A DNA stretch of 64,000 nt. It comes from an uncultured Spirochaetota bacterium (GTDB lineage: Bacteria; Spirochaetota; Spirochaetia; SZUA-6; Fen-1364). The translations under genes and the position numbers were made by a program. Below are positions 37,528 to 62,653 of this stretch, in pieces; positions within the stretch are counted from its first letter, which is position 1, and every line of letters begins with the position of its first letter. The notes under the pieces are model-generated. The model was not told the origin of the DNA and did no database searches. It saw only the letters and a program-made list of their open reading frames with translations. Location of the stretch: NCBI GenBank assembly GCA_963781885.1, contig CAWAHW010000006.1, forward strand, positions 160,001 to 224,000. The letters run 5' to 3'.

Positions 37528-38694
37528 CTATTGAATTCCGTTGGGGCTTCGAAGTGCTTGCCGGTATGTCAAAGCTCTTTGGATCTCCGCCTTTGAGAAC
37601 GATCCATAACGCTGCTCAAACATCCGATTGATCTCGTCCGTCTTTCCCGCATGTTTGAAGTCGTCATATACTCCGCGAAAGTAGTAAAAGAATAGCAAAT
37701 CAAGAAAGGCCGGCGAGTAGTCCGACCGTTCAGTCGACGAATCACGAAGAACGACCAGCGTGGAAGAAGAGTTTCTGATCAGTTCGCCGAACACGCGCAT
37801 GCTTTCGTCGATTTTTCCAAGCTTCAATAGGGACGCTACGAGCATTTCGTCACGATCGTCGTACGACGGATGACGATAGGAATACCACTGCACGAACTCA
37901 TCATAGTGGCCGGAGAAATATAGTACTGGGCAAATTCGCACGCTGTCTATCGTTTGTTTCGGATCAAACAGTCTTCTGTGAGAATCAAAAACAGCATATG
38001 CTTCCGCAAAGCGTAGCTGAAATTTCAGTGTCAAGAAGAGATCTTCTACCGCATTCTTCTTGACCAAGTTTTTTTGAAATCTTCTCACGGCTTCAACTGC
38101 AGGAATCTCTCGCTTCGTCAACCCGTCGATGAAAGCGCTGAGCGTATCATACGCCTTCCAATTCGACGGGACACTCTGCTCTACATGGTTTCTCTCAAAT
38201 ACCAAGGTGTCGAACCGGGTAAGTCTTGGGTCAAACTCGGCCAATTCGTAAGGAGTGAAAGTGCTCGCTCGAGCGATCAAGTCGTCATAGTACTTCATGC
38301 CGTCCATGAATTCTGAATCCGGAGAATCCACCAAATATCCGTGACTTGCGTATAGAAAAATTCTGGTATCGTCGCCCGTAGCATCGAAATATGTCTTGAA
38401 CCCTTTGAATATTTTCAGCAAGTCGCCGTCTCTCCAGCAAAGCAGCGCCCGATCGAAGAGCGCCGACTTCGTGCCCCGTGCAACAAGAGCATCAATTTGT
38501 TTATTGAGTCCCTCTGTCTCTTCGGGAGTGTACGAACTCTTCAGAAGACCTATCCGCTTTCGCACCGCATTCTGGGCGGGGCTGAAAACCTGCGCCCTCT
38601 GTTGCTGCCCACTACTGCACTCCGTGAACAGAAGCAGTTGGCTGAGAAAGGTGAGGACCAGAATTGCTATTTTCCGAAAGTCTTTTGAATCCAT
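37528..38694 (-). CDS. Putative immunity protein (exported/lipoprotein-like, helical)
   Basis: 388 aa; start overlaps the giant gene stop by 28 nt; N-terminal hydrophobic stretch ending FTEC; low GC like the giant gene's tip. Confidence 0.6.
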   Translation of the reverse strand: MDSKDFRKIAILVLTFLSQLLLFTECSSGQQQRAQVFSPAQNAVRKRIGLLKSSYTPEETEGLNKQIDALVARGTKSALFDRALLCWRDGDLLKIFKGFKTYFDATGDDTRIFLYASHGYLVDSPDSEFMDGMKYYDDLIARASTFTPYELAEFDPRLTRFDTLVFERNHVEQSVPSNWKAYDTLSAFIDGLTKREIPAVEAVRRFQKNLVKKNAVEDLFLTLKFQLRFAEAYAVFDSHRRLFDPKQTIDSVRICPVLYFSGHYDEFVQWYSYRHPSYDDRDEMLVASLLKLGKIDESMRVFGELIRNSSSTLVVLRDSSTERSDYSPAFLDLLFFYYFRGVYDDFKHAGKTDEINRMFEQRYGSFSKAEIQRALTYRQALRSPNGIQ

Positions 38695-41600
38695 GCGTTG
38701 TAGCTTGCGCTTTCGTTGTTGAGGTAATTACGCCAGTATTCATACTGACCCGGTTTCCGATTCCAGTAGTCGTTGGCATTAATAACTTTCGACAAGTAGT
38801 CTGAACTATAAGACAGACTTTTCTGTGCGGATATGTCATAAGCGTTCTCAAGATTGACCTTTCTCAGCAATTCCTTGTCAAATGCATCTCCTGCAGTGAA
38901 TTCAGGTGGCAGATCCCAGAATCTCTTTCTTTGCGCATCGAACATCCCAGGGTCTTCTTGTACAAACTGCATGACCTTCGCTCCGGGAGACCCATCGATG
39001 CCCTGGCCAACGACCAATTCTTTCGACTGGATGCCACCAAAGAAGTACTGCTTTACCAAATCATCCGGGGTCCCCATCTTTATGAACTCCGCCATTACAA
39101 CGTACCGCTCCTTGGCCGCGTCTTGAATTTGTCCGATGGTCTCAGGGTCATACGCAATATTCTGGGTATTCAATGGAACTCCCAAGGCATCCGCTTTGCT
39201 GAATACTGCTTTGTCCATGTTCTCCATGCCTTTAATGCCCTTCATCATCTCGGGCAAATTCGCCTCCAAACTGTCGTACAAGTCTCTCCCACTGGCGACA
39301 AAGTCCTCCGCAGCCAATCCCGTGAGCATCGCAGCTCCGAACGAGCTCTTTTCCCACAAGTTCTCTTTCATAACCGACGCAGGGTTCACCATGTCGAGAA
39401 GGACTTCCGCCCCGCTCACGCCAGCTTTGATACCCTGAGACAGCGCACTCCCCATAAGGATCATGCTAATCAGACCTTGCGCGGGGTTGTAGTCACGCTC
39501 GTCAAAGATGTCCTTCCCCGTCCGATTAGCATACCACCATTCTGACAACTGCCCACCGCTAATAGTATCCGCAGCATCAGCAAAACCGCCAGTTGAAAGC
39601 TTCAGGGCTGGCCCTAAAAGTCCCTTCCACGCCGAGTCCCAAAGGTTATCTGGCACTATGCCAACCGGGTCGTTGCTTCCTTCATTTCCACTGAATTTAG
39701 CATGCTCTTCGCCCCCGGCACCGATCTCCCAGTTGCCAGCAACCATTGCTTGTCTGGCGATGCTATTGCTAAAAGCCGAATCACTTACACCCCATGCCTT
39801 GCTAATTGTGTACATCGCGTCCATTTGCATGATGTATGCAATGCCCTCAACACGATTGCCAGAAGCATGTGTTCCCTCATGACTAAGGACCGAAGCCATC
39901 TCGGCAGCGCCCAGTGCTCCCTTTGCGTTCAACATGTCGGCATTAAGGGTGATGGTATTCGGCGATTCGGTAGAATACGATCCCCACTCGTTCTGCGCCA
40001 TCTGACTACTGAATTGCACGGCCAGGTCCCGAGAGAATATCCTCTGGGCAACATTCCAGTTTTGCTCGCTGTCGGTGTATCCAAGCCCGTTGACGGCGTT
40101 CAGCACCGCCCTGTCATCCGAACTCCCGTATTTCCACTTCGATATCGCGGCGCTTTCAGAAACTCCTTGTATCGCGCTTGCGATGTTTCCCAAGCTGAAG
40201 TCAGCCCCGCCGGTTCCCAAATTCATGCTGAATCCATTTGAGCCTCCCAGATGCATTTCCAAAAGCCCGTTTTGCACGATCTCCCCATCAGCGCCTTTGA
40301 TCCCAAGCATGCTGAAGTTTGCGACGTTTAGAGTTGCCTCTCCTGTCATTCCGTATTGGATCCCGGCCGAGACCGCACTTCCCATTAGTCCATTGAAGCT
40401 CTGAATGCTCTGCGTATCGAATACATGTCCGTTGAGTGTGATTCCGTTGCCGTCTTTGAGGTTCCACTGCCCGAGACTACTACTTGTTGCTGTGCTAGCC
40501 ATCCCTCCCAGATATCCCGCCAGCGCTTGCTGGCCTACCACTGATTGCGCAAACGCCTGGCCGTCGAATCCAAATCCTTTATTGCTGGAGTAGGTTATGT
40601 TATTGATCAGCCCCTGGCCCATGTTTGTCGTAAAGCCTTGAGCGCCGCTCCATATGGTCTTGCCGATTATCCCGCTCAGCCCACCCACGGCGTCCAGGCC
40701 CTTCGTGACCGTGTCCCCCAATCCCCCCATGGCCATGCTGAATGCCGTGCTGAGTATGTCCTTGCCAAGGCTCACCAGACCTTCGCCCAACGACATCTGC
40801 CTGTTGGCCAGATCGGCCACGGTGAAGAGACCTTTCTCCACCAGCCCTGCGATCGCAGCTCCCGCCGGCCCGGCGATCACCGTCCCCACCACCGAGACGC
40901 CGATATCTGCCACGCTGCGCAGGGTCGGCGCCTTTACCCAGGAGTTGCGGTCATCCCAGAGCTTCTGATCGTAAGCGGGGCGGGCCGCCATCGCCCAGCC
41001 CATGCCTGCCTTCATCTGGCTCCACATGAAGGGGGTCAGCACTCTGCCGAGCTCGCCGCTGCCCGTGGCGCTCAGGTATTTGCTGTATTCAGTCTCTTCG
41101 GCAGTGGCGTCGAGGTTCTCCGATTCCATTTTGGGGGCGATCCCAACGTAGAGCCCGAACTTGCCGGCCCCAATGCTTGCGGCGGTACTTGACGCGTCGC
41201 GCCTGGTTGACTCCCTGACGGTCGTCACCTGCGACGTGTGGCGGTTTCCCTCTGAATCTACTGTCGAAACGGTGTCAGTCACCTCAGTATGAACCGTGAC
41301 ATTTTTCCAGGAGGTGATTTCCGTCGTCCCTGTGTCACCTTGTTTGCCGAAGATTCCTTCCAGCTGACCCCGCATGTCCTTGATCGCCAGCTCCACCTGC
41401 GCCTGGATTCCGGCGGCGGAGAGCTGCAACAAGGTTGCGTCACTGAGATCGACTTTCGAGGCAATTTCCGCATCAGGCACAAAAGGCCTGTATGCCGGCA
41501 CGACGTGCGTTTCCGTCAGCGGACCGTTTATCGTCGAATCAACGACGGTCTGGCGTTGGAAATCACCACCGCTCCTGACGAATCCCGCCTCAAGCAAGCT

Positions 41601-44600
41601 TCTCTCCAAACCATCGGCAACGCTCTGATTGGCGTCGTCGATTTGTCGGTTCATCTCCACCGCGGCATCGGCGACCGCCTTGCGTGCTTCGGCAGCCGTG
41701 ATCATCAGGACGTGCTTGTCGATCTCTTCCATGCTCAGGCCGTTCATTTCTCTGATGAGGCTGAGGACGTGCGAGCTGTCAAAGACGTCAGGTCCGAGCT
41801 GGGCGAAGACCACGGAGCCTGCGCTGCTGATCCCCCGGTTGAGCAGCTTCCCGCTTGCCAGCAGGCTCGCAAAATCCTTGCCCTCAAGAATTCCCGCCAC
41901 CGCCGCGCGGGCGTCCGGCGCGGAAATCCCCAGATCGCTCACCACAATGCTTCTTGCATCCCTGATCGCGCCTTCGGCACTCTGGCCGAGCTGGCCAAGA
42001 ACGGCTTCGGAGCCGATTGAAGCCGCCTTCGTTGCCGCGTCCTGAACCCACCCGGCCTTGCCGGTCTCGAGCTTGGCATACGAGGCATCCCAGGCCGCCG
42101 CGCGATCCTGATAAGCCGTGGCGAAAGCGCTCTGCCAGTTTGTATGCTGCGTCTCAAGGGCGTCAAATGCCGTCTCCCATTGGGTCTCGGCTCGTTTCAG
42201 GATGGTCTCCATTGAAGCCTGCCACTGGCTCTGTTGGGTTTGCAGGTCCTCCTGCATCAACGCCCAGCGCTGCTCCTGGACCGCCATGTAGCTTTTCATC
42301 CGGTCCTGCCATAGCGCGGCAAGCGCCTGACCTTGAGAGCTCAGAAGATCCTGCTGGGCCCGATCAAGCTCAGGGTGTTTGCGCGGGTCTACTTCAGCCT
42401 GAAGCGACTGCTCAAGACCCAAGAGTCGATTCACATGATCGGAGGTTCGATATGCGGGATTGAGGTAGGCGCGCCGTGCGGCCTCCTGGAGCGCCGTCTC
42501 TGCGGCACGATAGGCATCCGATGGATGCTCGGGATCTGCCAAAGGGACTTGGCGGAGATCGTTGAGCGCTTTCTGATACGCCTGCTCGTTCGCAAGCTGC
42601 GTTGCCGCCAAGGCGCCGGCGCCTTGTTCGAGATCGGCGCTCGCGGCTTCACGTCTGGTCTGCGCGTCATAGAGCATGTCATTGAGGGCCGTCGCGGCGT
42701 CAGTTGCCGGGTGCGCCGCACTCGTCGCGGAACCGAGGTAGCGATCGATGAGCCCGGGAAGGTCCAACCTCTGCGACGGATCGGCTATTCCGGTATTCGC
42801 AAGGGCGAGAATATCCGCCAGGTCCTGCTTGCTCACTGCCGCGAGTATCGCGCTCGTGATTGCTGTGGTCGTTACCGCCGCTCCAGAGGTGCGACCAAGC
42901 ATGGCATCAAGAGTAGCTATCTCATTGTCCAGATTCGCCCGCAATCTCGAATACCCGCCGCTTCCCACGGTTGCATCTGAAAGAGCCTGGGCAGCCGTGG
43001 TCACGAGTCCGCTGGTGCCGAATGCATTCGTAATCTGGGTATTCAGATTTGTCTGGTAGTCATTATCAACCGTGGCCATGTGTCTTTGGTTGCCCGACTC
43101 GATTCCCAAACCTATCGCCAAAGCGTCAAGCATCGCGGCCGCAGCCCAACCACCAGGAATTGCCCAGAAGAAGAGGGAAGACAAGTAATACCCTGTGGCA
43201 ACTGATGCAGCAGTTTGTGCCGCGGCCTTGTGCGTTTGCTCTTGCTTCTCAAGCAGGTCCACCAGATACTGCTTCGCGTCGGCGACGTAGCTGCTCTTGA
43301 GCATGTCGGAATTGGCGTGGGATTGGTTGCTCGTCATACCCAGGATATTCATTGCGATGAAGAACTCGTAGAGATTCTTCTGCTGCGCGTCACTCATAAT
43401 ATTGTTGTACGCGTCCAGTCCTCGGGTCCTGAACTCCTGCGTATCATAGTCGACGCCATCTGGGACGCTGTTCTGTAATGACCTGGCCCTCATTGACTTG
43501 ATATGTTGCGAACAGTTTCTTGATGTCCTTGTCTCCTGACCCGGAAGGATTGATGACCGAAATCTGGTATTGAAACGCGAGGCCCCAGTTTTCAATGAAA
43601 TCGGTGTGATGGTCGGTGATATACGCTGCCATCTCTCTCAACCAGGTCTCTCGATCCGACGCATAAGTGTGGGAAGCTTTGCCGGTGAGATAGTCCTTCA
43701 ACGCGCTCTGCTGTGCAGCCGTGGAAGCGGTTCCGTAGCTGAAATCGGGCAAGCCTTCTGCATTGAACGTCACCTGCACGAATGCTTTTGTATTGGCCGC
43801 GCCGGCATCTGCAAACGTCACATCCCCTGGTGCGTCAACGAATAGCTCGCTAATCTTGGAGTCCAGCGCGTCTTGCGCGTCGGCGACTTTCTGTTGCTGT
43901 TTCGCCGTGGCAGAGCCCAGGAGCGACGACAACCTCTCGAAAGCAAGATATGCGCCGTACTGTTCTTGGTACTGCTCGAAGGCGTTGCGATATGCGACTT
44001 GTTCCGGACCATTGCCCTGCGCAAAGTCGGCCGGTTGATCGGTGCCGCCGTACAGGCTGCGCAAAGCATCGAGGGCGGCCTGCGCCCGCAGAAGCCCGGC
44101 CTTGGCTGCGGTGACACGTTGGTCGGGATCCACGGCGAGACTCGCGGAATCCTGTCCATCGGATCCTTCGGGCGCGCTCGTCACCTGACCGGTACTTGTA
44201 TCGAGATAGCCGGTTGATGCAAAGGTTGTAATGGCCTCGGCTTTCTGCAGCTCGAAACGCGCCGTCTCCAGACCCGCGGCGGCGTCCCGCGCCTGACTGT
44301 AAAGCCCATCATAGGTGCCGCTTGTTGCGGAGAAAGCCGCCACGGCGGCAGTGTAAGCTGTGTTCAAGGAATCCCGTGCAGCAACCAATTGGTCCAACTT
44401 GTCTTTGAGCGGCGCGGCCGCTGCCGCCGAGCTTTTCTGGCCATCTATCAAGCGCTGCGAGAGGGCCGAGCCAAGGAGGGATATCTGTCGTTTCAGCGAT
44501 GCAATCGACGCCTGGAGGCCATTCAAGACACGGGTCGAAGAGTCTACCGCGGCCTTTGCTGCTCCGGTTGCATCGAAGCTGTTGAGCTGAATCCCTTCCC

Positions 44601-47600
44601 AATCGGCAAGAAGTGCGGAGGAACGTCCGCTGCTTGCGTCGGCGAAAACTGGAGACAGAGTGGTTGAAAAAGCATTCAGCCGGGATCGATCCATGCTCCG
44701 GTCCGCGGCCACCGTCGTATTGAATCGCTCTGCCTGCCCTCGAAACTGATTTGTCGCTTCCAGGACTGCATTCTCATAAAGCGGTCCTGGGGTGCCCGAT
44801 CCAGCGCCGACCCCCGGTGCAACCTCATAAATCCCCGCGGCATCGTCGACCTGCGTCGTCACCTGACCGGCCGACGTTGCGGGAGCAAGATGCTGTTCTG
44901 TATTATCCTTATCCGTCGCATCATCGCTTTTGACTTGCATGAGAAGGTCGCTGAGGTAGGCACGGTATGCGAGGGGTGAGCCCGCCATCCCGCCAGCGAG
45001 GTCTTCCGCCTGCTTCTCAAAGCTCAGGCGCGCTGCCAGACCCGGCTGCGCGTGCGTCATGGCGGTGAGATCCTTGACGAGGATGTTTGAGATGTAGTCC
45101 AGGGCAGTCTTTGTCTGAGCGGATTGATTTTCGGCCGTCTTGTCGATGATGTCATTCGCGGAAGCGCTCAACGGGGAGGCGAAAACAGGGTCCTGCCACG
45201 CCTTCATTGAGGCAAGGGCTCCGTCCCTTACCGCGATTGTGAATGAATCCGTTCCCGCGCGCTCGGCGCCGTATGGAACGGGACCTGATTCCGCCGCGGC
45301 CACATAGCCGTTCTCAAGCGAATAGTCCGTTTGAAACGCCTGGGTCTGCTCCCGGACTGAAGGCGACACGCTGCCTGCGTCGGCATCCGTCTTTTTGCCC
45401 GCAAGTATCTTTCGCTTTAGGATCCACAAGGCAGCCTCGGGTGAGCCGAGGAGCAGGAGGAGAGCGTCTGTCGAAGGCGGCGGCGTATCATTCGAGCCAT
45501 CGGCAGACTTGATGAGGGAGTCGATTGCCGAAGGGCAGCCGACGCCAGAGATGGACAGCATCCATCCGGCGAGATCGACCCGCTCCGCCTCGTCGATTGA
45601 CAATTGCGCCAGATCGTAGTTGAGACCAAGCGCAAGCGCTTTTTCGTTGGCATCGATCCCCACCCTTCCCGAGAGATTGGTCGAGACGATGGCCGAGGCC
45701 CGGTCACGGCCGGCGTCCGAAAGTGCCTGCTGAGCGAACCACGCTTCCCGAGCAGCAGAGCCGAGCGTGCGAAGGCTGTCCTCATATCCTCGCGCGACGT
45801 CGAGTCCCTTCAGGCTGCCCGAGAGATAGCGCCCACGGAAGAGCTCGCGCCAATTGCCCTGCGCGTCCGCGTTGCCGTTGCACGCAAGGTAGCCCTGGGT
45901 GTAGAGACGCGCCAGCTCGAAGCTCCTGTCGGTCGAATCGCCATTCAGAGCGATGCCGTTCTCCGTCATGGTCGCCAGGTAATCGTTCAAAGAGGCATTC
46001 ACGCCGGCGGATGTTCCCGCGCTCAACACGGCCTGTTCGGCCGCCGTCATCGACTGGTCAATGAGCACCTCTTTCAGGAGCCCGAAGTCGCAGCCTGTCA
46101 GGCCATCGTCGGCAAGACCGCCGCAGACCGCGGCCAGAAGATCTGCCGCTGCGACGACCTTGAAGCTCGTCGTGGTTGAAAGAGCGGACAGGGTGCTCCC
46201 GTCCAGTTCGCCGCGAAGGAGCTGAAGCCAGGAATCCCTTCGGGAGTTCACGTCGACGGTCCCCGTCGCTCCGCGGAAAAGATCGAGATAAGCTCCCATG
46301 AATGAAGACAGCACGGACGAGTCGGCATCCGGATGCGAGGCGATGTAGGCGCGCGCGGCGCCTTGCGCCTTTTGCTCGTCATAGCTTTGACCGTCGATGG
46401 CAGCGTCTATGGCCGCCTTCATTCCCGCCGCATTGAAGTACCGTGACAGAAGCGAATGTTCCGTCGGCGTCGATGAAAGGAAGGATCGATTGATTCCCGT
46501 ATATGCCGTTGCCATCGCGGCATTCGATTCGATGGAGGCTTCGAGCAACGGAATCTCCTGATCGAATGCGAGCGAGGTCTTTTTCCCGCCGTAGTAGGTG
46601 CTCAGCAGGTACTCATTCCACGACGCGGCGTCAATGCCCTGCGCGCCCCATCGAGCGGAAAGGGAAGAATCAATCGAATGAAGCACGGAAAGTTGCGTGG
46701 CTCCTGTCGCGACGAGGACATCGCGGCTGCCGTCATCTTTCGCTCCGGCAAACCAGGCGGGGCTGTACGTGTTCCACACGGCGTTCGCATACTCCGTGCA
46801 TACATCCTCTCCCAGTGCATTCCAGTCAGCGTGCGACGGGTCGGTGAGCGCCGCGACCCGAAGAAGGAGAGAGGCCGTTTCTGTTTCCAGAGAGCTCCTG
46901 ATCCCCGCCACAAGAGGCGCGATCCAAGGGTCTCCCACGAGCTCGCGCAGCCCATCTGAGGACAGGAAGGCGCTCACGGCGCTATGGATGGCGGTGGAAT
47001 CGGGGGCAACGCTGCCGCATTCCCCGATCAGGGATCGGGCGATGCCGACCGCGGACTGGGCGACGAAACGCGCGCTCACGTCGCCGGCGGAAAGGGAAAC
47101 AGCGAGCCCGACGGAAGAATCGAATCCGCCTGTGCCTTGAATCGTTTGGACGTCGCGAAGAACCAGTAGCAGTGACACGGGGTCATTGGCGGTGCTCTCC
47201 GCATTGCCTTGCAGCTTTGCGAGGTCCTCCTGGAGGCTCTCCATGCGGTCGGAAAGACGGCCCAGCGCGCCTTGCGTCTCTTGCGATGCCCCGACGGCGC
47301 CGCCGAGATTCACCACGTGCAGCGCGAACAGATCACTCAGGGATTGGAGCAGGGATTGGAGCTGGGCGGCAACCGGCTGGGGAAGATTCAACGACACGGA
47401 TGCAATGCCATCCTCCACCTGCTGCAGCCACGTCTCCACGAACGCCGCGTTCGGGTGCGCGCTCCAGATGTCGCGCCACACATCCTCGGGGTTGCGGAAG
47501 ACAACCGTGTCCGCCGATGCGGCAGTGGCAATTCCGCGCTCAACGAGGAGAACCTGTGCCTGGGAGATCGCTTGGCGCGCGAGCCCTTCCCGCACCGCGG

Positions 47601-52931: not shown

Positions 52932-52941
52932 GCGCTCCACG

Positions 52942-54330
52942 ATGAGGGTCGGTTGCATGCTGCTTCTGCTGGTGTCGATCGACGCACTGCTTTCCGCGCA
53001 ATCGGCACCCCCGCTGTCCCTGACACTGGCGCAGGCGGAGAATCTCGCCCTTTCGAGCGCGGATGCCCTTCGCATTCAGGACTTGAAGATACGGTCGTCG
53101 GCCCGACGACTGGCGCTCGGCGTCCGAGACTACCTTCCGCAGATTGAGCTCGGCTTCTCCACCGCGGACACCGTGAATCTTGTCGCGCAGGACGCCCTGT
53201 CGAAACAACTGAGCCTCACCGTGCGGGAGCCGATCTACAACGGCGGTCGCGCCTCGTCTCAAAGATCGCTCGCCCGCGTGCAGCTCATTCTGACGCAGCA
53301 TGGTGCAGCCGTCGCCCGTGAAGACGTCTTGAATGATGTCTGGGACAAATTTCACCAGGTTCTCGTGCTCCAATCCCAGCGCGCGGTAAAGCTGGACGCC
53401 CTGACGCAATCGCGGCAACAGCTCGCGATCGCCCGAACGGAGCGCGGCCTGGGAATGATCCGCGAGATCGACTTGCTGGACGTCGAGCTTACCGTGAGCA
53501 ATCAGGAGATCGATCTCCAGTCAACCGAAACAGATATCGACAACGCGTTGTATGCGTTGAAAAAAGCCATCGGATTGTCCCCGGGCCAGGACCTCTCGCT
53601 GGAAGGCAGGATCGACTCCGATTATGAAGGAATTTCGATCGAGCAGCCGGTGTCGGAGCTCTTTGCGATCGCGCAGCGGAACAACCTCGACGTGCAGTCG
53701 GCCGGGTACAAGGTGAACCAGATGGAGGCCCAGCTTGCCCTGGCGCGCAGCAGTTTCCTTCCGCAGATTGCTGCAAATCTCTCACTCTCGGTCGCTGGGC
53801 CCGACTTCCCCCTTCAAACCCCGTCCGTGATGCTCGGCTTGGATATCTCGTTCCCCGACGCCGCCGCGCCCGTGAAGGGGAGTGCCTCGGGCGGCGTCAC
53901 AGGTCCCACGGCCACGACGCGCGACACTTCCGTCACGATTGATCCCCTGCAGGCGGTGACGGGAGGCCTCGATGAGCGCGACGCGCGGCTGCAGTTGGAG
54001 GAAGCGCGTGTGGCAATGCGGGCGCTCACCCGGGACCTGGACTTCCAGATCGGCCAGTCGATCTCCACCTACCGGCGTCACGCGACGACCATTGCGCTAG
54101 AGCGTCAGGCTCGGGATCTGCAGCAGAGGAAGCTCAAGGTCCTCGCGCAGCAGGTGTCAGACGGATCGGCGACGCGCGTGGACTATTTGAAGCAGCAGAC
54201 GGAAGCCGCAGACCAGGAAGTGCAACTGCTGTCGGACATCCTCTCGCTCATTCGAGACGAAAGGACCCTGGAACGTCTCATCGGTCTGGAACCGGGTGGA
54301 CTTGACCAGCCGGCGCGGAGTGGGTCATGA
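52942..54330 (+). CDS. TolC-family outer membrane protein
   Basis: Signal peptide; LSLTLAQAENLAL, YLPQI, PIYNGG, GMIREIDLLD and second repeat FLPQI...GSATRVDYL. Confidence 0.9.
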   Translation: MRVGCMLLLLVSIDALLSAQSAPPLSLTLAQAENLALSSADALRIQDLKIRSSARRLALGVRDYLPQIELGFSTADTVNLVAQDALSKQLSLTVREPIYNGGRASSQRSLARVQLILTQHGAAVAREDVLNDVWDKFHQVLVLQSQRAVKLDALTQSRQQLAIARTERGLGMIREIDLLDVELTVSNQEIDLQSTETDIDNALYALKKAIGLSPGQDLSLEGRIDSDYEGISIEQPVSELFAIAQRNNLDVQSAGYKVNQMEAQLALARSSFLPQIAANLSLSVAGPDFPLQTPSVMLGLDISFPDAAAPVKGSASGGVTGPTATTRDTSVTIDPLQAVTGGLDERDARLQLEEARVAMRALTRDLDFQIGQSISTYRRHATTIALERQARDLQQRKLKVLAQQVSDGSATRVDYLKQQTEAADQEVQLLSDILSLIRDERTLERLIGLEPGGLDQPARSGS

Positions 54331-55706
54331 GAACGGGCGCCGCGGCGGTGGGCTTCCTTGCGTGCAGCCTGGTGACTTTCTTCGCTCTCCTGTCGTGCAG
54401 CAGGGGAAATACGCGCAATGCCGACCCGGCCGCGGCGCAGACAATTCCGGTGAAAGTCCTTGTCGCGGTCAAGGAGCCTTTCACGCCCGAGCTGCGCAGC
54501 TTTGGCAGCATTTCCTACCGATCCAAGGCCGACATTGCAACGACGGTGGACGGTACGGTGAATAGTCTTGCCGTCGATGAAGGGGATCACGTCAAGGCAG
54601 GCGCCCTGCTTGCCCAATTGGAGAATGTGCAGCTTTCCATCAGGAAGAGCCAGGCGGAATCGCAGCTGGTCGCCGCGCAGGCGGCCGTGGAGCTTGCCCG
54701 CGCGCAGCTTTGGGAAGGAAAGCAACAGGTCGAGGCGCGGATGCTCTCGCTGAAAAAGACGCAGCTCGACATCGACCAGAAGAAGCGCGAATGCGACGAT
54801 CTCGGTGCCACCCTGGCGAGCCGGGAGGAGCTCTTCAAGGTGGACGGCATCAGTGAAGAGCAGCTTCAGTCGCTTCGCCTTCAACATCAATCTGCAGAGA
54901 CGACCTACGAGGGGTTGCTCACCGACTACGCCATCAACAACATCGGGCTGCGCGACCAGGACATCCTCGCGGCCGGCATGGCGGTTCCGACCCGGGAGCC
55001 CGATCGCGTCGCCCTTCTCGTCACGATCAACGTCCAGACGCTCCAGGCGCAGCTGGATTCTGCGACGGCTGGCCTGCAAACGGCGAAGTCGGATCTCCAG
55101 GCCGCGAGCGCTCTCGTGGATGAGATGAGCATTACCTCCCCGGTTGCGGGCATCATCGGCGCCCGTCAGTGCGGAGTGGGGGAGAGGCTGCGGACGGGCG
55201 ACAAGCTTTTCACGATAATCGACGATGCCCAGCTCTATGCCGTTTTTCTCGCTGCAGAAGACCGCGCCATGGGACTGAGCGAAGGGATGCCCGTCGAAGT
55301 CGAAGTGCCCGCGCTGGGAAATCGTCTCTATCGATCCCGCATCTCCATCGTCTCGCCATTGCTCGATCCGCAGTCCGGCAACCTCACCGTTCGCGCGCTC
55401 CTCGCCAATCAGGCCGGCGGCCTGAAGCCCGGCCTTTTCATTCGGGTGCGTGTTCAGACGGGAGAAACGCGTCAGGCCATCCTCATTCCCCTTTCGGCCA
55501 TCGTAGGGAGGAACGGAAAGGACGGCTCTGTCTATGTCGTCCGCGATGGACGCAGCTTCCGCCGGCCTGTCGTGCTCCGGCTCGACACGGAAGGTCAGTC
55601 GCCGGGCAAGCTGGAGGTTGAAAGCGGAATCGGCGCCGGGGATCGGGTGGTCGATGAGCCGTCGCCAATGCTCCAGGACGGGGGAGACGTCCGTGAGACA
55701 CAGTGA
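54327..55706 (+). CDS. RND periplasmic adaptor (MFP) lipoprotein with long alpha-hairpin
   Basis: Lipobox LLSC; GTV..L.VDEGD.VKAG.LLAQL, ITSPVAGII, LKPGLF, VESGIGAGDRVV motifs. Confidence 0.92.
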   Translation: MRTGAAAVGFLACSLVTFFALLSCSRGNTRNADPAAAQTIPVKVLVAVKEPFTPELRSFGSISYRSKADIATTVDGTVNSLAVDEGDHVKAGALLAQLENVQLSIRKSQAESQLVAAQAAVELARAQLWEGKQQVEARMLSLKKTQLDIDQKKRECDDLGATLASREELFKVDGISEEQLQSLRLQHQSAETTYEGLLTDYAINNIGLRDQDILAAGMAVPTREPDRVALLVTINVQTLQAQLDSATAGLQTAKSDLQAASALVDEMSITSPVAGIIGARQCGVGERLRTGDKLFTIIDDAQLYAVFLAAEDRAMGLSEGMPVEVEVPALGNRLYRSRISIVSPLLDPQSGNLTVRALLANQAGGLKPGLFIRVRVQTGETRQAILIPLSAIVGRNGKDGSVYVVRDGRSFRRPVVLRLDTEGQSPGKLEVESGIGAGDRVVDEPSPMLQDGGDVRETQ

Positions 55707-55739: not shown

Positions 55740-57224
55740 GTGAAAGGAAAGGCGGCGCTTTTTGCACGAGTGGCGATGCTCGCGCTTGCGGTCTTCACCT
55801 TCGCCGACTGCGCCCTGATCGACCTGCGCGGATTTCCTGTCACGACATGGCCCGCCGTCCCGGAAGCCGTTGTGCCATCGGCGCAGAACGTGTGGGTGCA
55901 ATTCTCAGAACCGGTCGACCATGCGGTTGTCGAGCCGCTCATCGCGGTAACAGCGGCTGGGCAGAGCGTGGCGGGGGACTTTGCATGGAATTCCAACCAG
56001 GTGATCTTCACCCCCGTCAAGCCCTTCGCGCCCGGCGTGCGCCACGTTCTCAGCCTCCAGGGAACAATCAGGACAATCGCCGGACGTATGTTCGACGAGA
56101 GAATCATCGTCCCTTTCTATGTCGGCACCGACGCCCCGCCGCCGATCATTTCAGCCGTCACGCCGGCGGAGGGCGCCATCATCGGACGGTCCGCAACGCT
56201 GTCGCTGGGATTCTCCGAACCGATGGACAAGGAATGTTTCCGCGACGCCTTCAGCGTGAGCCCGGCGTCGGATTTTACGCTGGCGTGGAATGCGGATTGC
56301 ACGACCGTCACGATTTCTCCCCGCGAGCGCTGGATCGCGGAGACCCTCTACGCTTGGAGCGTCGCGAGCGCATGCAAGTCTCTGACAGGAGTCGCTGTCG
56401 CGAGGGTCTGGTCCGGCACCTTCCTTGTCCAGAACGACCCTTCCTCTCCTTCCGTGCTCCCGCCGGGGCGAGCCCTGGTTTCGGCCTCCCTGGTCTCGCC
56501 GCTGCCGGGGGGCCTCTCCGATCTGCTCCGCGGGGACTGCATCATGCTCGCCTTCTCAAAAGACGTCGATCTTTCGACCCTTGAAGCCGCCTTCTCGCTC
56601 TCTCCGGCCGTCATCGGAAGCTTGCGGAAGGTCTCAGCCGGTATTTTTGTCTTCGTGCCGGCAGAGGATTGGAGGATGGGGCAGGAGTATGTCCTGACCA
56701 TCACCACGGATCTGGAAGATCTGGCGGGCAATCCCCTTCCGTCCCCCTTTCGGCAGGTGTTCACCCCTGCCATTCCTGCGCAGACGGTTTGCGAAATCGA
56801 TCTGGTGGGCAACCTGACCGATACGCCCGTCTACGCAACCTCGGCGTTGAACAACAGCGTCCCTTATCTCCTCCATTGGACGGTGGGAGCGCCGCCGGAC
56901 GACGCGCTGGCGCTCACGATCACGTTACGCTTCAGCGAGCCTTATGATGACGCTCACAAGCCGATCATTGCGGGTGCGATCCGTCTCGACGGCTTTTTCC
57001 CCGAGTCCGTCATCAGCCCCCAGGTGACACAGGTGGGCTGGACCGGCCCGCGGACGGTGAACATTTCCTATACCGGTTTTACTCGCAGCGCAGACAGCCC
57101 TTCGCGTGAACGCATCTACTATCGGCTCAGCATACCGTCGGGGCCCGAGCAGACAGGCACCTTTGACGGCTCGTTTCTGTCGGATCCGGTCACGCTCCTG
57201 CTCGAATCGGGGTCCGACTCATGA
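55740..57224 (+). CDS. Ig-like (Big_5/SbsA-type) repeat protein, probable lipoprotein
   Basis: Repeated FSEPVD/FSEPMD/FSKDVD...F.P...Y.L.I...DLAGN units; N-terminal hydrophobic stretch ending FADC. Confidence 0.8.
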   Translation: MKGKAALFARVAMLALAVFTFADCALIDLRGFPVTTWPAVPEAVVPSAQNVWVQFSEPVDHAVVEPLIAVTAAGQSVAGDFAWNSNQVIFTPVKPFAPGVRHVLSLQGTIRTIAGRMFDERIIVPFYVGTDAPPPIISAVTPAEGAIIGRSATLSLGFSEPMDKECFRDAFSVSPASDFTLAWNADCTTVTISPRERWIAETLYAWSVASACKSLTGVAVARVWSGTFLVQNDPSSPSVLPPGRALVSASLVSPLPGGLSDLLRGDCIMLAFSKDVDLSTLEAAFSLSPAVIGSLRKVSAGIFVFVPAEDWRMGQEYVLTITTDLEDLAGNPLPSPFRQVFTPAIPAQTVCEIDLVGNLTDTPVYATSALNNSVPYLLHWTVGAPPDDALALTITLRFSEPYDDAHKPIIAGAIRLDGFFPESVISPQVTQVGWTGPRTVNISYTGFTRSADSPSRERIYYRLSIPSGPEQTGTFDGSFLSDPVTLLLESGSDS

Positions 57225-58744
57225 GCATGCCGCGGACGGCCCGCTCTCTCATCGTCTCTATCGTTCTGGCTGTCGTTCTTCTCCTCCTGCAGACGGGCAC
57301 TTCTTGCGTCCTCCTGGACATGAGCCCGCTCACCATTACGTCCTGGACACCGCAGGATGAACGGCTTGGCACCGTGAGCGGCGTGACGATACAAGTCCGC
57401 TTTTCACGGCTCGCCAACAAGCAGCTCGCCCAACAGGCCTTTTCAATCACGGGGGACGGCCAAAATGTCGAGGGTCGCTTCCTCTGGCCGGATGACCAGA
57501 CACTCCAGTTCGTTCCCGATGAGCCGCTGGAAGATTTCGTCATTTATCAGATGCGAGTTTCAGGGCAGGCTGAGGATACCCAGGGCCGGGACCTTCGCCC
57601 GGAGTTCGCGCATACATTCACCACAAAGAGCGACTACACACGCCCGACGGTATCCGCGATTGCCCCTGTCGACTATCAGAGCGTCGCGGACCAGCTGACC
57701 CCCGTTTCGATTGTCTTCAGCGAGCCAATGGATCGCGCCTCCCTGATCGCGGCATTCGCCATCGCCCCCGCGGTCCGTGGTCTCCTTTCTTTGAGCCCCG
57801 ACGGCAGAACGCTCACATTCACGCCGACCGAGCGGCTGCAATGGCAAACACGCTACATGATCACCATCGCCCGGAGCGCCGCCGACATTCAACGCAACGC
57901 GTTGGGAGCGGACTATACCTCGCATCTGTTCGTCGGAACAGAAAGCGTCGCCCCTTCAATCCTCTCTCTGCAGAGCGCTGATGGCACGCTCATCCTTTCG
58001 GCCGACGACCCAACCGACGCTGTGATGACCGTTGCATCCGGCTGGGAATCCACGGAGGGGCTCGTCGTGACATTCTCGGAGCCGGTGCTCACGAGCAGCG
58101 CATCCGCTGCCGTTCAGATTTCTCCGAGCGTTCCCAGCACGATCCGCGAGGCGAACAGCGAGTTTACCTCCACGCTTACGTACTCCTTCCCCGACCGGCT
58201 TGTCTACGGTGTCACCTACACCGTAAGCACCGTGCCGGGGGTGCAGGACGCCCAGGGAAACAAATCGATCGGGCAGGCTGCGTACCATTTCCTCGTTGAT
58301 GGGGCCGCAACAACGCCTCCAGTGATTACCCGCATATGCTACCCGGAAGGGACGGGAGACCCCGCGAATAATGTCACGCTTGTCGCGTACGACTCCCTTA
58401 CGCTTCCTCCCCTCACGGCGGGGGAGGTGGATTCCTTCTTCGATGTGTACGTCGACCTGGCACCGGGAGCGGCGCTCGATCCTTTTTCGATCGCGAAGGC
58501 CTTCAGCGTGTCGACGACGAACAACGCGGCGACGTTCGCTTCCTTTGCGGTCGAGGTGGGCCCCGCGCAGACGAACCCCGCTCCGAGGGCAACCGTGAAC
58601 GAGCTTGTTGCCCGGGTCTGGGTCCACGTCACGAACAATGCCTCATCGGGGCAGGTCGTGATCCATGTTTCGACCGATCTCAAGGACAACCGGGGAACGG
58701 CGCTCGCGCGGGAGCTCCTCCTGCCCTTGAACGATCCCGACTGA
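57221..58744 (+). CDS. Ig-like (Big_5/SbsA-type) repeat protein, probable lipoprotein
   Basis: FSEPMD, TLTFTP, DIQRN, DAQGN, DNRG units; signal ending GTSC; ATGA overlap with previous gene. Confidence 0.82.
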   Translation: MSMPRTARSLIVSIVLAVVLLLLQTGTSCVLLDMSPLTITSWTPQDERLGTVSGVTIQVRFSRLANKQLAQQAFSITGDGQNVEGRFLWPDDQTLQFVPDEPLEDFVIYQMRVSGQAEDTQGRDLRPEFAHTFTTKSDYTRPTVSAIAPVDYQSVADQLTPVSIVFSEPMDRASLIAAFAIAPAVRGLLSLSPDGRTLTFTPTERLQWQTRYMITIARSAADIQRNALGADYTSHLFVGTESVAPSILSLQSADGTLILSADDPTDAVMTVASGWESTEGLVVTFSEPVLTSSASAAVQISPSVPSTIREANSEFTSTLTYSFPDRLVYGVTYTVSTVPGVQDAQGNKSIGQAAYHFLVDGAATTPPVITRICYPEGTGDPANNVTLVAYDSLTLPPLTAGEVDSFFDVYVDLAPGAALDPFSIAKAFSVSTTNNAATFASFAVEVGPAQTNPAPRATVNELVARVWVHVTNNASSGQVVIHVSTDLKDNRGTALARELLLPLNDPD

Positions 58745-58745
58745 G

Positions 58746-61700
58746 ATGAAAGCGAGCGCGAACGGCACGGCCTTGCTGGAGACGTGGTTCCGACGGAAGG
58801 CGACGATTGTCTCCGTCCTGCTTATCCTCCTCGTCCTCCTGGTTGCCGCGTTGCGCTCGCTCCAGTTTGGTCCCTCCTGCGCCGTCGGACCGGCTGTTTT
58901 CTCCGTGTCGATGGAATACTTCGGTGTCGATGCGGAGGAGATGGAGCGCCTGGTCACCGTGCCACTGGAAGATGCGATTGCCGCCCTTTCCGGAATGCAG
59001 CGCCTGCGTTCCACCTCGGAATACGGCAAAAGCGTCGTGGAGGTGACCCTTTCTCCGACAACGGCTCCTGACCGTTTCTACCTTGCATTGCGCGACGCGG
59101 TGAACGGCCTCTCGGCCACGCTGCCGAAGGCGGTACAACGGCCGGAAATCCAGAGCGCCGCCAACGACCAGCGGCCTTTTTTCATCGCAACGGTTCTCGC
59201 TCCGGGGGCTACCCTCGATGAAACCCGCGACCTCGTCGAGTTGACGGTGAAGCCTGCCCTCAAGCGGATCGACGGGGTGGGGGAGCTGGAGGTCGGCGGG
59301 GGAAGCCAGCTCGAGGTCCACCTCGTCGTCGACCAGAAAAAGGCGGTCGCCGCCGGCCTTTCCTTCGACGCGATCGCGTCGGCGCTCCAGGCCGCCTATG
59401 TCTCTCGACCCATCGGTCGGCTGCGCGCGGCCGGGTTCGACACGCCCATCATCCTCGATGGCCGCTTCGACTCGCTTTGCGCGCTCGCCGATCTCTGCCT
59501 CAGTCTTGGAGACGACAGATTCGTCCGCCTGGGGGATATTGCCGACGTCACGTACGGCGGCCGCGAGCAGGACACCATCAGCCGCATCGACCAGGAGCAG
59601 AGGGTGACGCTTTTCATCAAGAGCGCCGGGACCGCCAACGTCGTCGCGGTGAGCAAAGCTCTCAGACGCAGGATCGCGGAACTGTCCTCTCGCCATCTGT
59701 CCTTTGACATCATCTACGATCTCGGTGCGGATCTCTCGGCGTCCATCGACGATGTGCTCTGGTCGCTTGCGGTCGCGATGGGGATCGTCGCGTTTTTTGT
59801 CGGTGTCGCTTTACGCCCCTTGCGGAATGCATGTCTCCTCACGGCATTCCTGCCGGTCGTTGTCCTGGCAGCTGCCGCCATCCTCTCATCGCTTGGCATC
59901 AGTGTGGACCACAACATTCTCGCCGGCATCGGCGTCGGGATCGGGATGATCGTGGATCCCGGCATCATCGTGCTGTCTTCGCTCGTGGCTGCGGGGCGAC
60001 CCGACGGCTCGCCCGCACGGGTCGTCAAGGAGCTGTTTTCCCCGCTTGTCGCCTCCACGGCCACAATGCTGATCGTCCTCATTCCCCTTCTCACCATGGG
60101 GCGCTCCATCAGCGGGCTGTCAGAAGTGTCGTACGCGCTTGCCCTCATGCTGGTCATTTCACTTTCACTCGCGGTTTTCTTCCTGCCGGCTTTTGCGAAA
60201 CGACGCGTCGTGACCGAGGGTGCGTGGTTTTCGACGGGCGGGCGGATCCCGTTCCTCGACCCTGAAAAGCTCCGACATCTGTCGCGTCGCGCGCGTCACA
60301 GCCTGGACGCGGTGGTTCTCTGGGCGGGCCTGCATTGCGGTGCCGTCCTGGCGGCAACGGCGCTCGTCTGCGGATTGGGGGTATTCGCCGCGTTCCGGAT
60401 GGACCTCGTCCTCACGCCGACCCCGGACGCGCATTCGATATTCGCGCACATTGAGTTCAAGAGCGGCACGAGCATCGACACGATTGACGAGCGCACGACC
60501 GCTTTGGCGCGCGTCATCGGCGCGATGCCGGGGGTGCGGCACGTGGAGTCAATTGCGCGCCGGGAAAGCAGCCAATTGACGATCACAACGACAGGCAGTC
60601 CGTCTGAGAATGCCGCCGTGCGTGCCGGCCTGACCCGGGCCGGCCTCCAGATGACCGACGCGTTCGTCTATCTGCCGGAAGGCATGGGTGACACCGACCA
60701 GGCGCTCGAGGTGAGCATCACGGGCGCGGACAACAACATGCTCCGGGAATGCGCGCGAAAAGTTGCGGAAATCCTCCGAGGCGCCTCCTGGGTGAGCCAG
60801 GTCGTCTTGAACTTCAAGGAGGGACCTCCGGCCTACGTCCTTTCCGTCGACCAGGAAGAGGTCTCTACCTATGGCCTCAGCACCGCCGACATCGCCGGCA
60901 CTTTGCGATGGAGCATGTATGGACCGGTGGCGTTGAAGTGGCTGGAACGCGATTCCCGCGAGATCGACCTGCGCATCCGAAGCCGCGCCGACGAACACGG
61001 AGATCTTGCCGCGATTCAACGAACGTCGATACTCGGCGCAGGGGGCCGGGCGGTCTCCGTGGCGAGACTCGGCACATTCGTGGCGGAACAGCCGCCGTCG
61101 CGGATTTTCCGTGCCGACCGACAGCGCGCCGTCTCGCTCACCGTCCACAGCGGGCTGCGCGACACAGGCCTCGTCCTGCGCAGTCTGGAATCGGCCCTCG
61201 CCGCCTTTCCCTTGCCTGCCGGGTATGCATTCCGCGTGGACAGGCTCATCTACGAACGACTCCGCCAGTTCCAGACCCTCGCAATGTTGCTGCTTGGCGC
61301 TTTGATGCTGGTCTTCATCACCCTCGCCACGCAAATGGAGTCCCTTTCGTCGCCGGTCCTCGTCATGTCGATCGTCCCGGTCTCGTTGTCCGTCCCCGTC
61401 GCATTCCTCTGGCTGATCCACGTCGGGATCGGCGTGTCGGTCATCGTCTCACTCATCATCATGACGGGCATCATCGTCAACAATGCCATCCTCATCCTGG
61501 ACCGGACACTCCGCCGCTGCGCCGCCCTGGAGAGCTTCAGCGCGGGGGAGGTGCGCCGGTCGCTGCGCTTCGCGGTGCGGCATCGCACCCGAGCGCTCCT
61601 CCTGACTTCGGCGGCCACAATTCTCGGCGTCACGCCATTTCTTTTCGGCGCCGTCGTCGGATCCGAGCTTTTCCGTCCCTTGGCTATCGTCGTTTTCTGG

Positions 61701-61799
61701 GGGACGATCGCGTCCCTCTGCGCAACATTTCTGGTGCTTCCGGCTGTCGCATCGGCCGTTCCCGTCTTTGCCCGCCGCTTTCCCGAGGTGAGGAGATGA
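58746..61799 (+). CDS. RND permease (AcrB/AcrD/AcrF family), divergent
   Basis: 1017 aa with 1+5+1+5 TM layout; EEMERLVTVPLEDAI, RLGDIADV, GMIVD, GIIVNNAIL motifs. Confidence 0.9.
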   Translation: MKASANGTALLETWFRRKATIVSVLLILLVLLVAALRSLQFGPSCAVGPAVFSVSMEYFGVDAEEMERLVTVPLEDAIAALSGMQRLRSTSEYGKSVVEVTLSPTTAPDRFYLALRDAVNGLSATLPKAVQRPEIQSAANDQRPFFIATVLAPGATLDETRDLVELTVKPALKRIDGVGELEVGGGSQLEVHLVVDQKKAVAAGLSFDAIASALQAAYVSRPIGRLRAAGFDTPIILDGRFDSLCALADLCLSLGDDRFVRLGDIADVTYGGREQDTISRIDQEQRVTLFIKSAGTANVVAVSKALRRRIAELSSRHLSFDIIYDLGADLSASIDDVLWSLAVAMGIVAFFVGVALRPLRNACLLTAFLPVVVLAAAAILSSLGISVDHNILAGIGVGIGMIVDPGIIVLSSLVAAGRPDGSPARVVKELFSPLVASTATMLIVLIPLLTMGRSISGLSEVSYALALMLVISLSLAVFFLPAFAKRRVVTEGAWFSTGGRIPFLDPEKLRHLSRRARHSLDAVVLWAGLHCGAVLAATALVCGLGVFAAFRMDLVLTPTPDAHSIFAHIEFKSGTSIDTIDERTTALARVIGAMPGVRHVESIARRESSQLTITTTGSPSENAAVRAGLTRAGLQMTDAFVYLPEGMGDTDQALEVSITGADNNMLRECARKVAEILRGASWVSQVVLNFKEGPPAYVLSVDQEEVSTYGLSTADIAGTLRWSMYGPVALKWLERDSREIDLRIRSRADEHGDLAAIQRTSILGAGGRAVSVARLGTFVAEQPPSRIFRADRQRAVSLTVHSGLRDTGLVLRSLESALAAFPLPAGYAFRVDRLIYERLRQFQTLAMLLLGALMLVFITLATQMESLSSPVLVMSIVPVSLSVPVAFLWLIHVGIGVSVIVSLIIMTGIIVNNAILILDRTLRRCAALESFSAGEVRRSLRFAVRHRTRALLLTSAATILGVTPFLFGAVVGSELFRPLAIVVFWGTIASLCATFLVLPAVASAVPVFARRFPEVRR

Positions 61800-62653
61800 C
61801 GAAGCTGCGCGGCTTTGCATGCCTTGTACTCGTTCCATCCCTCCTGGTCACGCTTGCCTCTTGTGCGGCCCGACAAGATTCGGTCGCCCTTGTCCTTTCC
61901 CTTGCCCCCGGCATGGAGAGGACGATGCAATTCACGACGGAGCAGCATTTCACGAGCTCACGCTTCGACGGCGCAGCGGACCCCTCGTCGACGCTCTCCC
62001 TCACGTACCGGTTCCGCGTCGAATCGGTGAGCGCAGCGGGAGTGGCAAAGGTCGAATCGTTGGTGCTCGACATCACGACGGCGAAAGGCGTTCCGGGAAT
62101 TGGTGCCCTTGCCGACAAGCTCCGTCGCCGGACGTACGTGGCGACAGTCGATGCATCAGGCCGTGTTCTCGATCTGCAGGCGGACAAGCCCGACGCGCTT
62201 GCTTTGCCGGGGGTGCCGCTTGCTCCCGCGGGCGGCACGGAGGGCGTTCCGTCAGGGGGTGATCTGGGGGTCCTTTTCGTTGGGCTGAATGGAGAGAAGG
62301 TATCCGTGGGCCAGACCTGGACGACAGCGCTGCCGCATCAGGGCTCGGGGCTCCGCGGGACTCTTCGCTGGACGCTCGCCTCGGTCGGCAGGTCCACGAC
62401 GCGCCTCGACTACACCGGCGTGCTGGAGAAACAGCGGGTGCCCATTTCCAACCTGCCCGCCGGCGCCGAGGCTATCCTGGCCGGCGATTGTTCCGGTTTT
62501 GTCGAGCTTGAAAGGGATACCGGCTGGCCGCGACGCGGCGCCATGGTGATCCGCGCGGACGTCTCCCTTGGCGCGTCAGAGACGGAGGCAGGCCCCGGCG
62601 CGGCATTCGTTTCGATGCGAATCGTCACTCGATTCGACGCGGTGCGCCGATGA
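61796..62653 (+). CDS. Beta-rich lipoprotein of unknown function
   Basis: ATGA overlap with RND stop; lipobox TLASC; KVSVGQTW motif. Confidence 0.72.
   Translation: MTKLRGFACLVLVPSLLVTLASCAARQDSVALVLSLAPGMERTMQFTTEQHFTSSRFDGAADPSSTLSLTYRFRVESVSAAGVAKVESLVLDITTAKGVPGIGALADKLRRRTYVATVDASGRVLDLQADKPDALALPGVPLAPAGGTEGVPSGGDLGVLFVGLNGEKVSVGQTWTTALPHQGSGLRGTLRWTLASVGRSTTRLDYTGVLEKQRVPISNLPAGAEAILAGDCSGFVELERDTGWPRRGAMVIRADVSLGASETEAGPGAAFVSMRIVTRFDAVRR

Follow-up and report, generated by a model that had tools for sequence, protein, structure and literature searches.

We analysed a 64,000-nucleotide (nt) stretch of DNA from an uncultured Spirochaetota bacterium, referred to below as the window (G000:C6:160001-224000, where G000 is the window's own genome, 4.64 Mb in 7 contigs). 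The window encodes on the minus strand a giant protein with a Sec-type signal, and on the plus strand an operon for a TolC-type outer membrane factor, a membrane-fusion protein (MFP), a resistance-nodulation-division (RND) permease, and lipoproteins that include Big_5 and tetratricopeptide-repeat (TPR) proteins. A preliminary description of the region had proposed that giant and operon form an undescribed toxin-delivery system. Here we report that this gene cluster is conserved across the spirochaete phylum and that its two halves belong together.

Open reading frames (ORFs) were called with translation table 11, and family scans were performed with Pfam, NCBIfam (E ≤ 0.01) and PHROG (E ≤ 0.001). 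Co-occurrence was counted in 41 relatives and in a phylum sample of 401 genomes. The N-terminal domain of the giant was represented by A2, an alignment and profile of 15 sequences, and its zincin module by the profile A1. The second Big_5 protein of the operon (Ig2) served as the operon marker, at E ≤ 1e-40 among the 41 relatives and at E ≤ 1e-10 in the phylum sample.

The giant reading frame runs on the minus strand from 50487 to 38667. It had been described as a single protein of ~3,940 amino acids (aa), a frame change having been overlooked. In this assembly the gene consists of two ORFs that overlap by ~150 nt, and a length of ~3,938 aa is reached only when the frame shift is read through. 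The N-terminal piece (43444..50574, minus strand, coding from 50487; 2376 aa) contains the signal peptide (50487-50410), the N-terminal domain and a helical body. The true coding part of the C-terminal piece (38667..43595, minus strand; 1642 aa) begins at the frame change, ~43460. This +1 change, cagcgtcccagatggc (43455..43470, minus strand), was placed from the sequence and the frames, and is known from this assembly alone. The closest orthologue, P0003, comes from the same genus (G019, source name 'Spirochaetia bacterium') and is a single open frame of 3944-3945 codons; both P0003 and P0004 (4008 aa) cross the junction in one frame. The identity of the N-terminal piece is 53% to P0003 (3940 aa) and 44% to P0004, and the source names of the relatives are Spirochaetia and Treponema. 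The frame change may have inactivated the giant gene in G000, or it may stem from an indel error in the assembly.

The giant of G024 is split close to this junction as well. As its shift falls in G/T homopolymers ~40-50 residues beyond that of the window, we saw no sign of a conserved programmed frameshift. Giant genes are also frame-split in other few-contig assemblies, namely G024 (L040 15700-16100, in G7/T6 runs), G008 and G015 (L027-L030). Such recurrent splits hint at long-read indel errors or at frequent decay of giant genes.

The Sec-type signal that had been noted on the giant, MRGHKILVAGIAAVAMLWATGTAIAQ, is its most hydrophobic 19-mer. The N-terminal domain (N-domain; 49099..50487, minus strand; alignment A2), ~470 residues in length and conserved across the phylum, carries a Trp ladder, that is, a run of W at 14- or 15-residue spacing. 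W72, G310, W314, A317 and W343 are invariant in the 15 sequences of A2. The N-domain model consisted entirely of long helices with a mean predicted local distance difference test score (pLDDT) of 76.7. A Foldseek search with this model returned generic helical rows only, none at E ≤ 0.001, the ESM Atlas gave no usable match to the first 600 residues of the giant, and a Leptospira-like N-domain used as a query against genome contigs detected no related loci. Very long coiled coils had been reported for the protein; in the part that we checked, the first 500 residues, long helices are predicted, one of 96 residues. Neither the long body nor either giant piece matched a Pfam, NCBIfam or PHROG family. 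Two Gly/Ala-rich hydrophobic segments lie where they had been seen before and rank next after the signal peptide by hydrophobicity: LFFWAIPGGWAAAAMLDALAIGLGI (43101..43202, minus strand), with a Kyte-Doolittle 19-mer mean of 1.46, and IGVSVVGTVIAGPAGAAIAGL (40821..40928, minus strand), with a mean of 1.82, the highest after the signal peptide. Members of the giant family range from 2,400 to 4,500 residues.

The operon genes are tightly packed on the plus strand, with 4-nt overlaps at three junctions. The first encodes a TPR lipoprotein (51678..52373; TPR_16, E 4.5e-21) that is present in the cluster of most genomes examined. It is followed by a 184-aa lipoprotein without a family (52377..52931), which matched only the close relatives G019 and G005, and by the TolC-type outer membrane factor (52942..54330; OEP PF02321, 100 bits against a cut-off of 22, in two stretches). 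The lipoprotein MFP (54327..55706; TIGR01730, 195 bits against 94.9) has a long hairpin, and its N-terminal part matches HlyD/EmrA-type models. Two Big_5 lipoproteins come next, Ig1 (55740..57224; E 2e-25, three stretches) and Ig2 (57221..58744; E 5.4e-34); Ig2 had no relative among the PDB sequences. The permease gene (58746..61799; ACR_tran PF00873, 421 bits against a cut-off of 28) precedes that of a 285-aa lipoprotein (61796..62653), which is weakly DUF6263-like and matched only G019 and G005.

The operon had been described as eight genes. All eight and their families were recovered, but the cluster continues past the end assigned to it. A second TPR protein, TPR2 (62680..63996, minus strand; 438 aa, no obvious signal peptide), is a conserved cluster member found in the clusters of G002, G008, G015, G019, G005, G024, G035, G020, G342, G363 and G070. 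After TPR2, just past the window end, lies a second RND gene, RND' (G000:C6:224169-227198; ACR_tran, 653 bits). Two RND paralogues stand in tandem within the cluster in most other genomes.

The characterization of the in-operon RND as divergent was borne out. It scored 344 bits (RND_permease_2) and 281 bits against HAE1 cut-offs of 1250 bits (NF033617/NF000282), and its best PDB match reached 175 bits, with MdtB among the best. In transmembrane helices 4 and 10 (TM4 and TM10) its motifs are VDP and VNN, against VDD and VVK in RND'. The in-operon permease thus lacks the TM4 Asp-Asp and TM10 Lys positions that we take to be the proton relay of AcrB, while the DD/K motif is intact in RND'. A single TM4 Asp with a TM10 Asn is common to most cluster RNDs of other genomes, in both paralogues.

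Giant and operon are divergent units, as had been stated, but the gap between them is not purely intergenic. It is low in G+C content (GC) and holds a gene for a 118-aa secreted ankyrin-repeat protein (50804..51160, minus strand, upstream of the giant; Ank_5, E 1.5e-11), whose membership in the system is uncertain. Ankyrin proteins appear as immunity proteins (Imm-ank) in passages of the 2012 catalogue of polymorphic toxins (PMC3482391). An Rfam search of 50400-51800 gave no match. No Pfam family of ATP-binding cassette (ABC) transporters, TpsB, type VI secretion or RHS proteins was found among the scanned ORFs of the region, which agrees with the absence reported earlier.

We then examined whether giant and operon occur together in other genomes. 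The giant query matched 9 of the 41 relatives and Ig2 matched 11. The distribution is patchy within genus g1, where the giant was detected in 4/20 genomes and Ig2 in 10/20. By tblastn on fetched loci, the giant directly adjoins the operon in the window and in five relatives, G031, G002, G008, G015 and G035. The order of the genes takes three forms: the giant is divergent from the operon in the window and in G031, which belongs to another family, follows the RND gene in the same direction in G002, G008 and G015, and follows TPR2 in G035. The loci of G005, G020 and G026 end at contig ends, where linkage is unreadable. Adjacency was also seen in other families of the class, at four of five fetched loci (G342, G363, G070 and G328), and in other classes, at four of seven (G350, G257, G226 and G162). 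Of the other three among these seven, the locus of G341 stops at a contig end, that of G416 has no giant within 40 kb, and in that of G101 a run of N directly adjoins the operon (L055 1-6000, G101:C1:874000-880000).

In the phylum sample, the A2 profile matched 82 of the 401 genomes and Ig2 matched 125. Ig2 was present in 79/82 A2-positive genomes versus 46/319 A2-negative genomes (odds ratio 156, Fisher p 1.6e-46, uncorrected for relatedness), and the three A2-positive genomes without Ig2 are drafts of at least 300 contigs. By hand tally, both markers were on one contig in 38 genomes, ≤16 kb apart in 36 of these, and on different contigs of draft assemblies in 31 further genomes. Among the genomes of ≤10 contigs, 14 matched Ig2 strongly, and the N-domain was present in every one of these. 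Non-co-occurrence, which would have spoken against the proposed association, was thus not observed, and a functional link of giant and operon is highly probable. The operon tracks the N-domain rather than the C-terminal module, because Ig2 accompanied A2 in 79/82 genomes versus 4/11 for the zincin module (A1) without A2, seven of those 11 genomes lacking Ig2.

The C-terminal module contains two parts, a conserved domain and a variable tip. The zincin-like domain (39681..40280, minus strand) starts from the boundary motif LLEMHLGG. The HExxH motif that had been reported is present once in the giant, as HEGTH (39881-39867), and with the downstream Glu spans 39881-39846. It belongs to this family-wide conserved domain and lies outside the variable tip. 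A 537-residue C-terminal query matched 141 representative proteins, and most matches cover only its first block of ~200 residues, the zincin block. H174, E175, H178 and E185 are invariant in 76/76 aligned sequences. The zincin block was modelled with pLDDT 85-97, and its top structural matches were zincins: 1eb6 (deuterolysin; Z 8.4, root-mean-square deviation 3.0 over 105 residues), 2x3a (AsaP1; Z 8.2), 1g12 (the Grifola enzyme; Z 8.2), 3e11 (a predicted zincin; Z 7.4) and selecase (Z 6.8). Nearly all of the top 50 structural rows were zincins. Foldseek placed minigluzincins first for this block, yet at E 0.18, and the C-terminal profile had no match among the PDB sequences. The HExxH motif, a third ligand and the fold are thus all found in the modelled domain, and catalysis is predicted. 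The invariant HExxH with a downstream Glu and the fold matches at Z 8.2-8.4 resemble zincins such as the M35 aspzincins and the minigluzincins. In contrast to these enzymes, the domain has no sequence-family match, its Glu lies seven residues past the second His, and it is embedded in a giant protein immediately ahead of a variable tip.

The tip itself (38670..39680, minus strand; C-piece residues 1306-1642, ~340 aa) contains no His and no M23 motif. The alignments of P0003 and P0004 to the C-piece stop at residues 1145-1173, after which the sequences differ, and the window tip showed no similarity to the tips of P0003 and P0004. Of the 141 representatives, only the matches of P0008, P0009, P0042, P0076 and P0080 extend into the window tip. 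The 98 tails fell into 29 BLAST groups, and that of the window groups with P0008 alone. An M23-like motif, HxxxD...HxH, was found in 16 tails, members of the three largest groups among them; P0004 ends in Peptidase_M23 and the tip of P0003 carries the M23-like motif. The model of the window tip was mostly of low pLDDT.

Directly after the giant lies a gene for a 388-aa lipoprotein (37528..38694, minus strand; lipobox ...LFTEC), whose start overlaps the giant stop by 28 nt. The lipoprotein may be a partner cognate to the tip, or its immunity protein. The protein has no Pfam, NCBIfam or PHROG family and two homologues only, P0148 and P0149 (63% and 48% identity). It was found in 1/92 genomes of the order, G000 itself, and neither the protein nor its alignment detected related loci in metagenome contigs. 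GC falls from ~0.62 to 0.46-0.53 over 37500-40600, which covers zincin domain, tip and the 388-aa gene, the gene itself having a GC of 0.46-0.51. Complex prediction of zincin plus tip with the lipoprotein scored 0.00 in both runs, which speaks neither way.

Relatives contain shorter copies of the C-terminal module. Six shorter modules lie downstream of the giant (3699-3707 aa) in the complete genome of G363; they are 70-90% identical to it from residues 2362, 2727 or 3131 to ~3340-3445 and then diverge. The modules downstream of the giant in G342 are 76-90% identical to the pre-tip region and likewise diverge thereafter. Orphan tip cassettes with shared pre-tip sequence are thus present in these two relatives. 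A same-strand ORF lies within 400 nt downstream of 21/22 modules, and many of these follower ORFs start signal-peptide-like or lipobox-like, on visual inspection of their initial 35 residues. When pairs were compared, both tip and follower were similar in 7, only the tip in 10, only the follower in 9 and neither in 184 (p 5e-5).

The G363 locus (L046-L048, G363:C1:1168000-1222000) comprises the full cluster and then the six truncated modules with differing tips. Two of its followers carry a NADase_transloc F5/8 type C domain, and the same follower family occurs in G342, G328, G070 and G226. G369, G250 and G372 (L069, L070-L071 and L072), which are without the N-domain or the operon, hold arrays of zincin-plus-tip modules of 745-1300 aa, each followed by a signal-peptide protein of ~420 aa, with repeated nuclease- or transposase-like genes in between. 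Neither Ig2 in these three genomes nor any operon gene in the 20-28 kb around the arrays was detected.

The relatives thus share a conserved N-terminal part and differ in the C-terminal tip, which is the build of a polymorphic toxin. Variable tips, orphan cassettes, co-varying downstream secreted proteins and the GC drop also fit the earlier reading of a distinct tip with an immunity-like gene. We consider it fairly likely that the giant is toxin-like.

We compared the cluster with known systems. Like CdiA and other polymorphic toxins, the giant is a very large protein with a Sec signal, a conserved N-terminal part and a variable tip past a conserved boundary. A small gene directly after the tip and orphan cassettes sharing pre-tip sequence are further points in common. 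VENN is the boundary motif in CdiA-type toxins; in the giant the boundary is LLE.HLGG plus the zincin domain. Its body is helical, not a beta-helix, and the neighbours are TolC, MFP, RND and Big_5 genes instead of TpsB. No TpsB or two-partner-secretion-domain Pfam family was found in the region ORFs or the giant.

Type 1 secretion combines an ABC transporter, an MFP and TolC, and its substrates carry a C-terminal signal. The giant adhesins and RTX proteins of this route resemble our case in that a TolC-type channel and a long-hairpin MFP stand next to a giant exported protein. Here, however, no ABC family was found among the cluster ORFs, the inner-membrane part is ACR_tran, and the giant has an N-terminal Sec signal in place of a C-terminal one. 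The nearest precedent for the route is MacAB-TolC, which exports a periplasmic peptide toxin in two steps, a tripartite pump taking a Sec-exported product from the periplasm. Its cargo is a small peptide and its motor an ABC protein, whereas here the cargo would be ~3,900 residues long and the motor an RND pair. In the abstract of PMC5985334, MacB is described as an exporter of virulence factors.

Heteromeric RND pumps such as MdtBC share with most of the clusters the two tandem RND paralogues, and MdtB was among the best PDB matches, as given above. They differ in that most cluster paralogues have the single TM4 Asp and TM10 Asn (RND' of G000 and G019 has Lys) and in the added Big_5 and TPR partners. 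A relation to TIGR04388 (Lepto_longest), also a family of very large spirochaete proteins, had been suggested. It was rejected, as neither giant piece matches NCBIfam at E ≤ 0.01 (family cut-off, 45 bits). A TIGR04388 search of G257, G350, G226, G162 and G000 gave no match in any of the five genomes, in a search that included no positive control. Full-text searches of the literature, judged by titles and abstract openings, yielded no paper connecting RND or TolC with a giant protein of spirochaetes or with a polymorphic toxin. Neither RND nor TolC occurs in the 300,000 characters searched of the 2012 polymorphic toxin catalogue (PMC3482391), which lists trafficking modes.

The proposal that a polymorphic-toxin-like giant and a dedicated TolC/MFP/RND/Big_5/TPR assembly form one undescribed system stands, in our judgement, at an even chance. 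From gene content and linkage, the pump may export the giant or anchor it, a part of the proposal that falls somewhat short of even chances. In its most specific form, which we put forward tentatively and consider less likely than not, the cluster would be a new Sec-dependent two-step system of secretion or display, in which the RND pair, the long-hairpin adaptor, TolC and the Big_5 and TPR lipoproteins recognise the Trp-ladder N-domain and thread or mount the ~4,000-residue effector through the outer membrane. As the signal peptide suggests, Sec would bring the giant into the periplasm. The pump-like assembly would then recognise the N-domain and carry the giant to the cell surface or mount it there, as may be supposed from the linkage. 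The body would project the C-terminal module, and the zincin domain might cut the tip free, a role suggested by where it lies and by the invariance of its catalytic motif. The released tip could act on the envelope of a rival cell; in relatives it would often be an M23-type peptidoglycan peptidase, and here it has no known domain. The downstream lipoprotein would protect the producer.

Several observations weigh against this scheme. To our knowledge, the substrates of RND pumps are small molecules, and polypeptide transport by an RND protein is without precedent. The giant gene is out of frame in this assembly, the Pfam scan recognised no toxin domain in the window tip, and G000 itself has no orphan cassette. 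Giant and operon are unlinked in G019, the source of the closest orthologue, where they lie on different contigs and 34 kb upstream is operon-free, as well as in G024, G315 (361 kb apart) and G101 (90 kb apart). Fifteen draft genomes have a strong Ig2 match but no A2. Tip and follower co-vary imperfectly, as 19 of the 26 similar pairs are alike on one side only, and the SH3_3 or F5/8-type domains of some followers fall outside the classical immunity folds. Finally, the hydrophobic segments could act as stop-transfer anchors, which would hold the giant in the inner membrane.

In a different explanation, the giant stays in the envelope as a periplasmic scaffold or peptidoglycan-remodelling factor together with the pump-like assembly. 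It might open a way through the wall, or the transporter might switch it on and off, as FtsEX does with EnvC, and tip variety would be ordinary fast evolution and not warfare. A coiled body with a C-terminal M23/LytM-type domain is the build of EnvC too, many tips are M23-like, and the SH3_3 and F5/8 type C domains of the followers bind wall or sugar. The hydrophobic segments could serve as membrane anchors, and the linkage evidence fits this explanation equally. Yet for a housekeeping part it is difficult to account for orphan modules that keep 76-90% identity as far as the zincin domain and then carry unrelated tips, followed by genes of their own. The same holds for the patchy occurrence within genus g1 (giant 4/20, Ig2 10/20), for the deviating GC of the tip cassette and for a 388-aa partner that is so rare (1/92 genomes). 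We regard this explanation as unlikely, though a serious candidate.

If the operon served for self-protection, either against membrane-active parts of the giant or against incoming toxins of the family, the giant would reach the surface in another way. Transporters confer immunity in some bacteriocin systems, and linkage alone cannot separate export from protection. Against this, the operon follows the N-domain and not the tip or zincin module (79/82 against 4/11); the module-only arrays of G250, G369 and G372 are without Ig2 in the genome or operon genes nearby. The cluster also encodes no other exporter. Self-protection is thus improbable as the role of the operon.

Chance adjacency to an ordinary drug or metal efflux pump is very improbable. 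The parts do match general TolC, MFP and ACR_tran models, and the unlinked loci of G019, G024, G315 and G101 would be explained. Against this stand the 79/82 co-occurrence and a distance of ≤16 kb in 36/38 same-contig pairs, which come from many families and show several gene orders, and an RND that is far under the NCBIfam cut-offs and without the DD/K motif. A phage tape-measure-like nature of the giant, or its origin as a remnant of the prophage at window 1-28 kb, has a very small probability. Tape-measure proteins can also combine a long helical body with Gly-rich hydrophobic stretches and a terminal M23 domain, and a prophage is present, but neither giant piece has a PHROG match at E ≤ 0.001, the giant carries a Sec signal, ~10 kb of host-like genes with a GC of 0.63 separate it from the prophage, and its conserved neighbours are pump genes and not phage genes.

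Few ways have been described for spirochaetes to display proteins on the surface or to fight neighbours. In the cluster, a family of giants whose tips are exchangeable is tied to a machine resembling an efflux pump, and roughly one in five of the phylum genomes sampled carries it. If the pump exports or anchors the giant, this would be a new cargo class for RND transporters and a new trafficking route for polymorphic toxins. If the two-step reading is true, it would be the first RND-family motor to handle a protein, and phylum-wide, Leptospira-like and Treponema-like lineages included. The N-domain is a candidate export tag, the zincin domain a candidate release protease, and the pairs of tip and lipoprotein are candidate toxin/immunity pairs.

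Further genes were noted in G000 and in the remainder of the window. FlaA, the flagellar sheath protein of spirochaete type, had three matches in G000 and none in 14 control genomes. From 28 kb onward the GC of the window is ~0.62. A prophage-like island occupies 1-28200, with a GC of ~0.50 versus 0.62 elsewhere. Its genes include those for a portal of P22/SU10 type (46-2112) and for an SU10 adaptor (4054-4704). Two minus-strand genes encode an N6/N4 DNA methylase joined to an Mrr-like nuclease domain (19233-20909) and a serine recombinase (26616-28170). An NHL-repeat protein is encoded at 34346-36550. The gene that abuts that of the 388-aa lipoprotein encodes an MtgA-like monofunctional peptidoglycan glycosyltransferase (36498-37298, plus strand), which matched TIGR02070 at E 2e-46, under the family cut-off.

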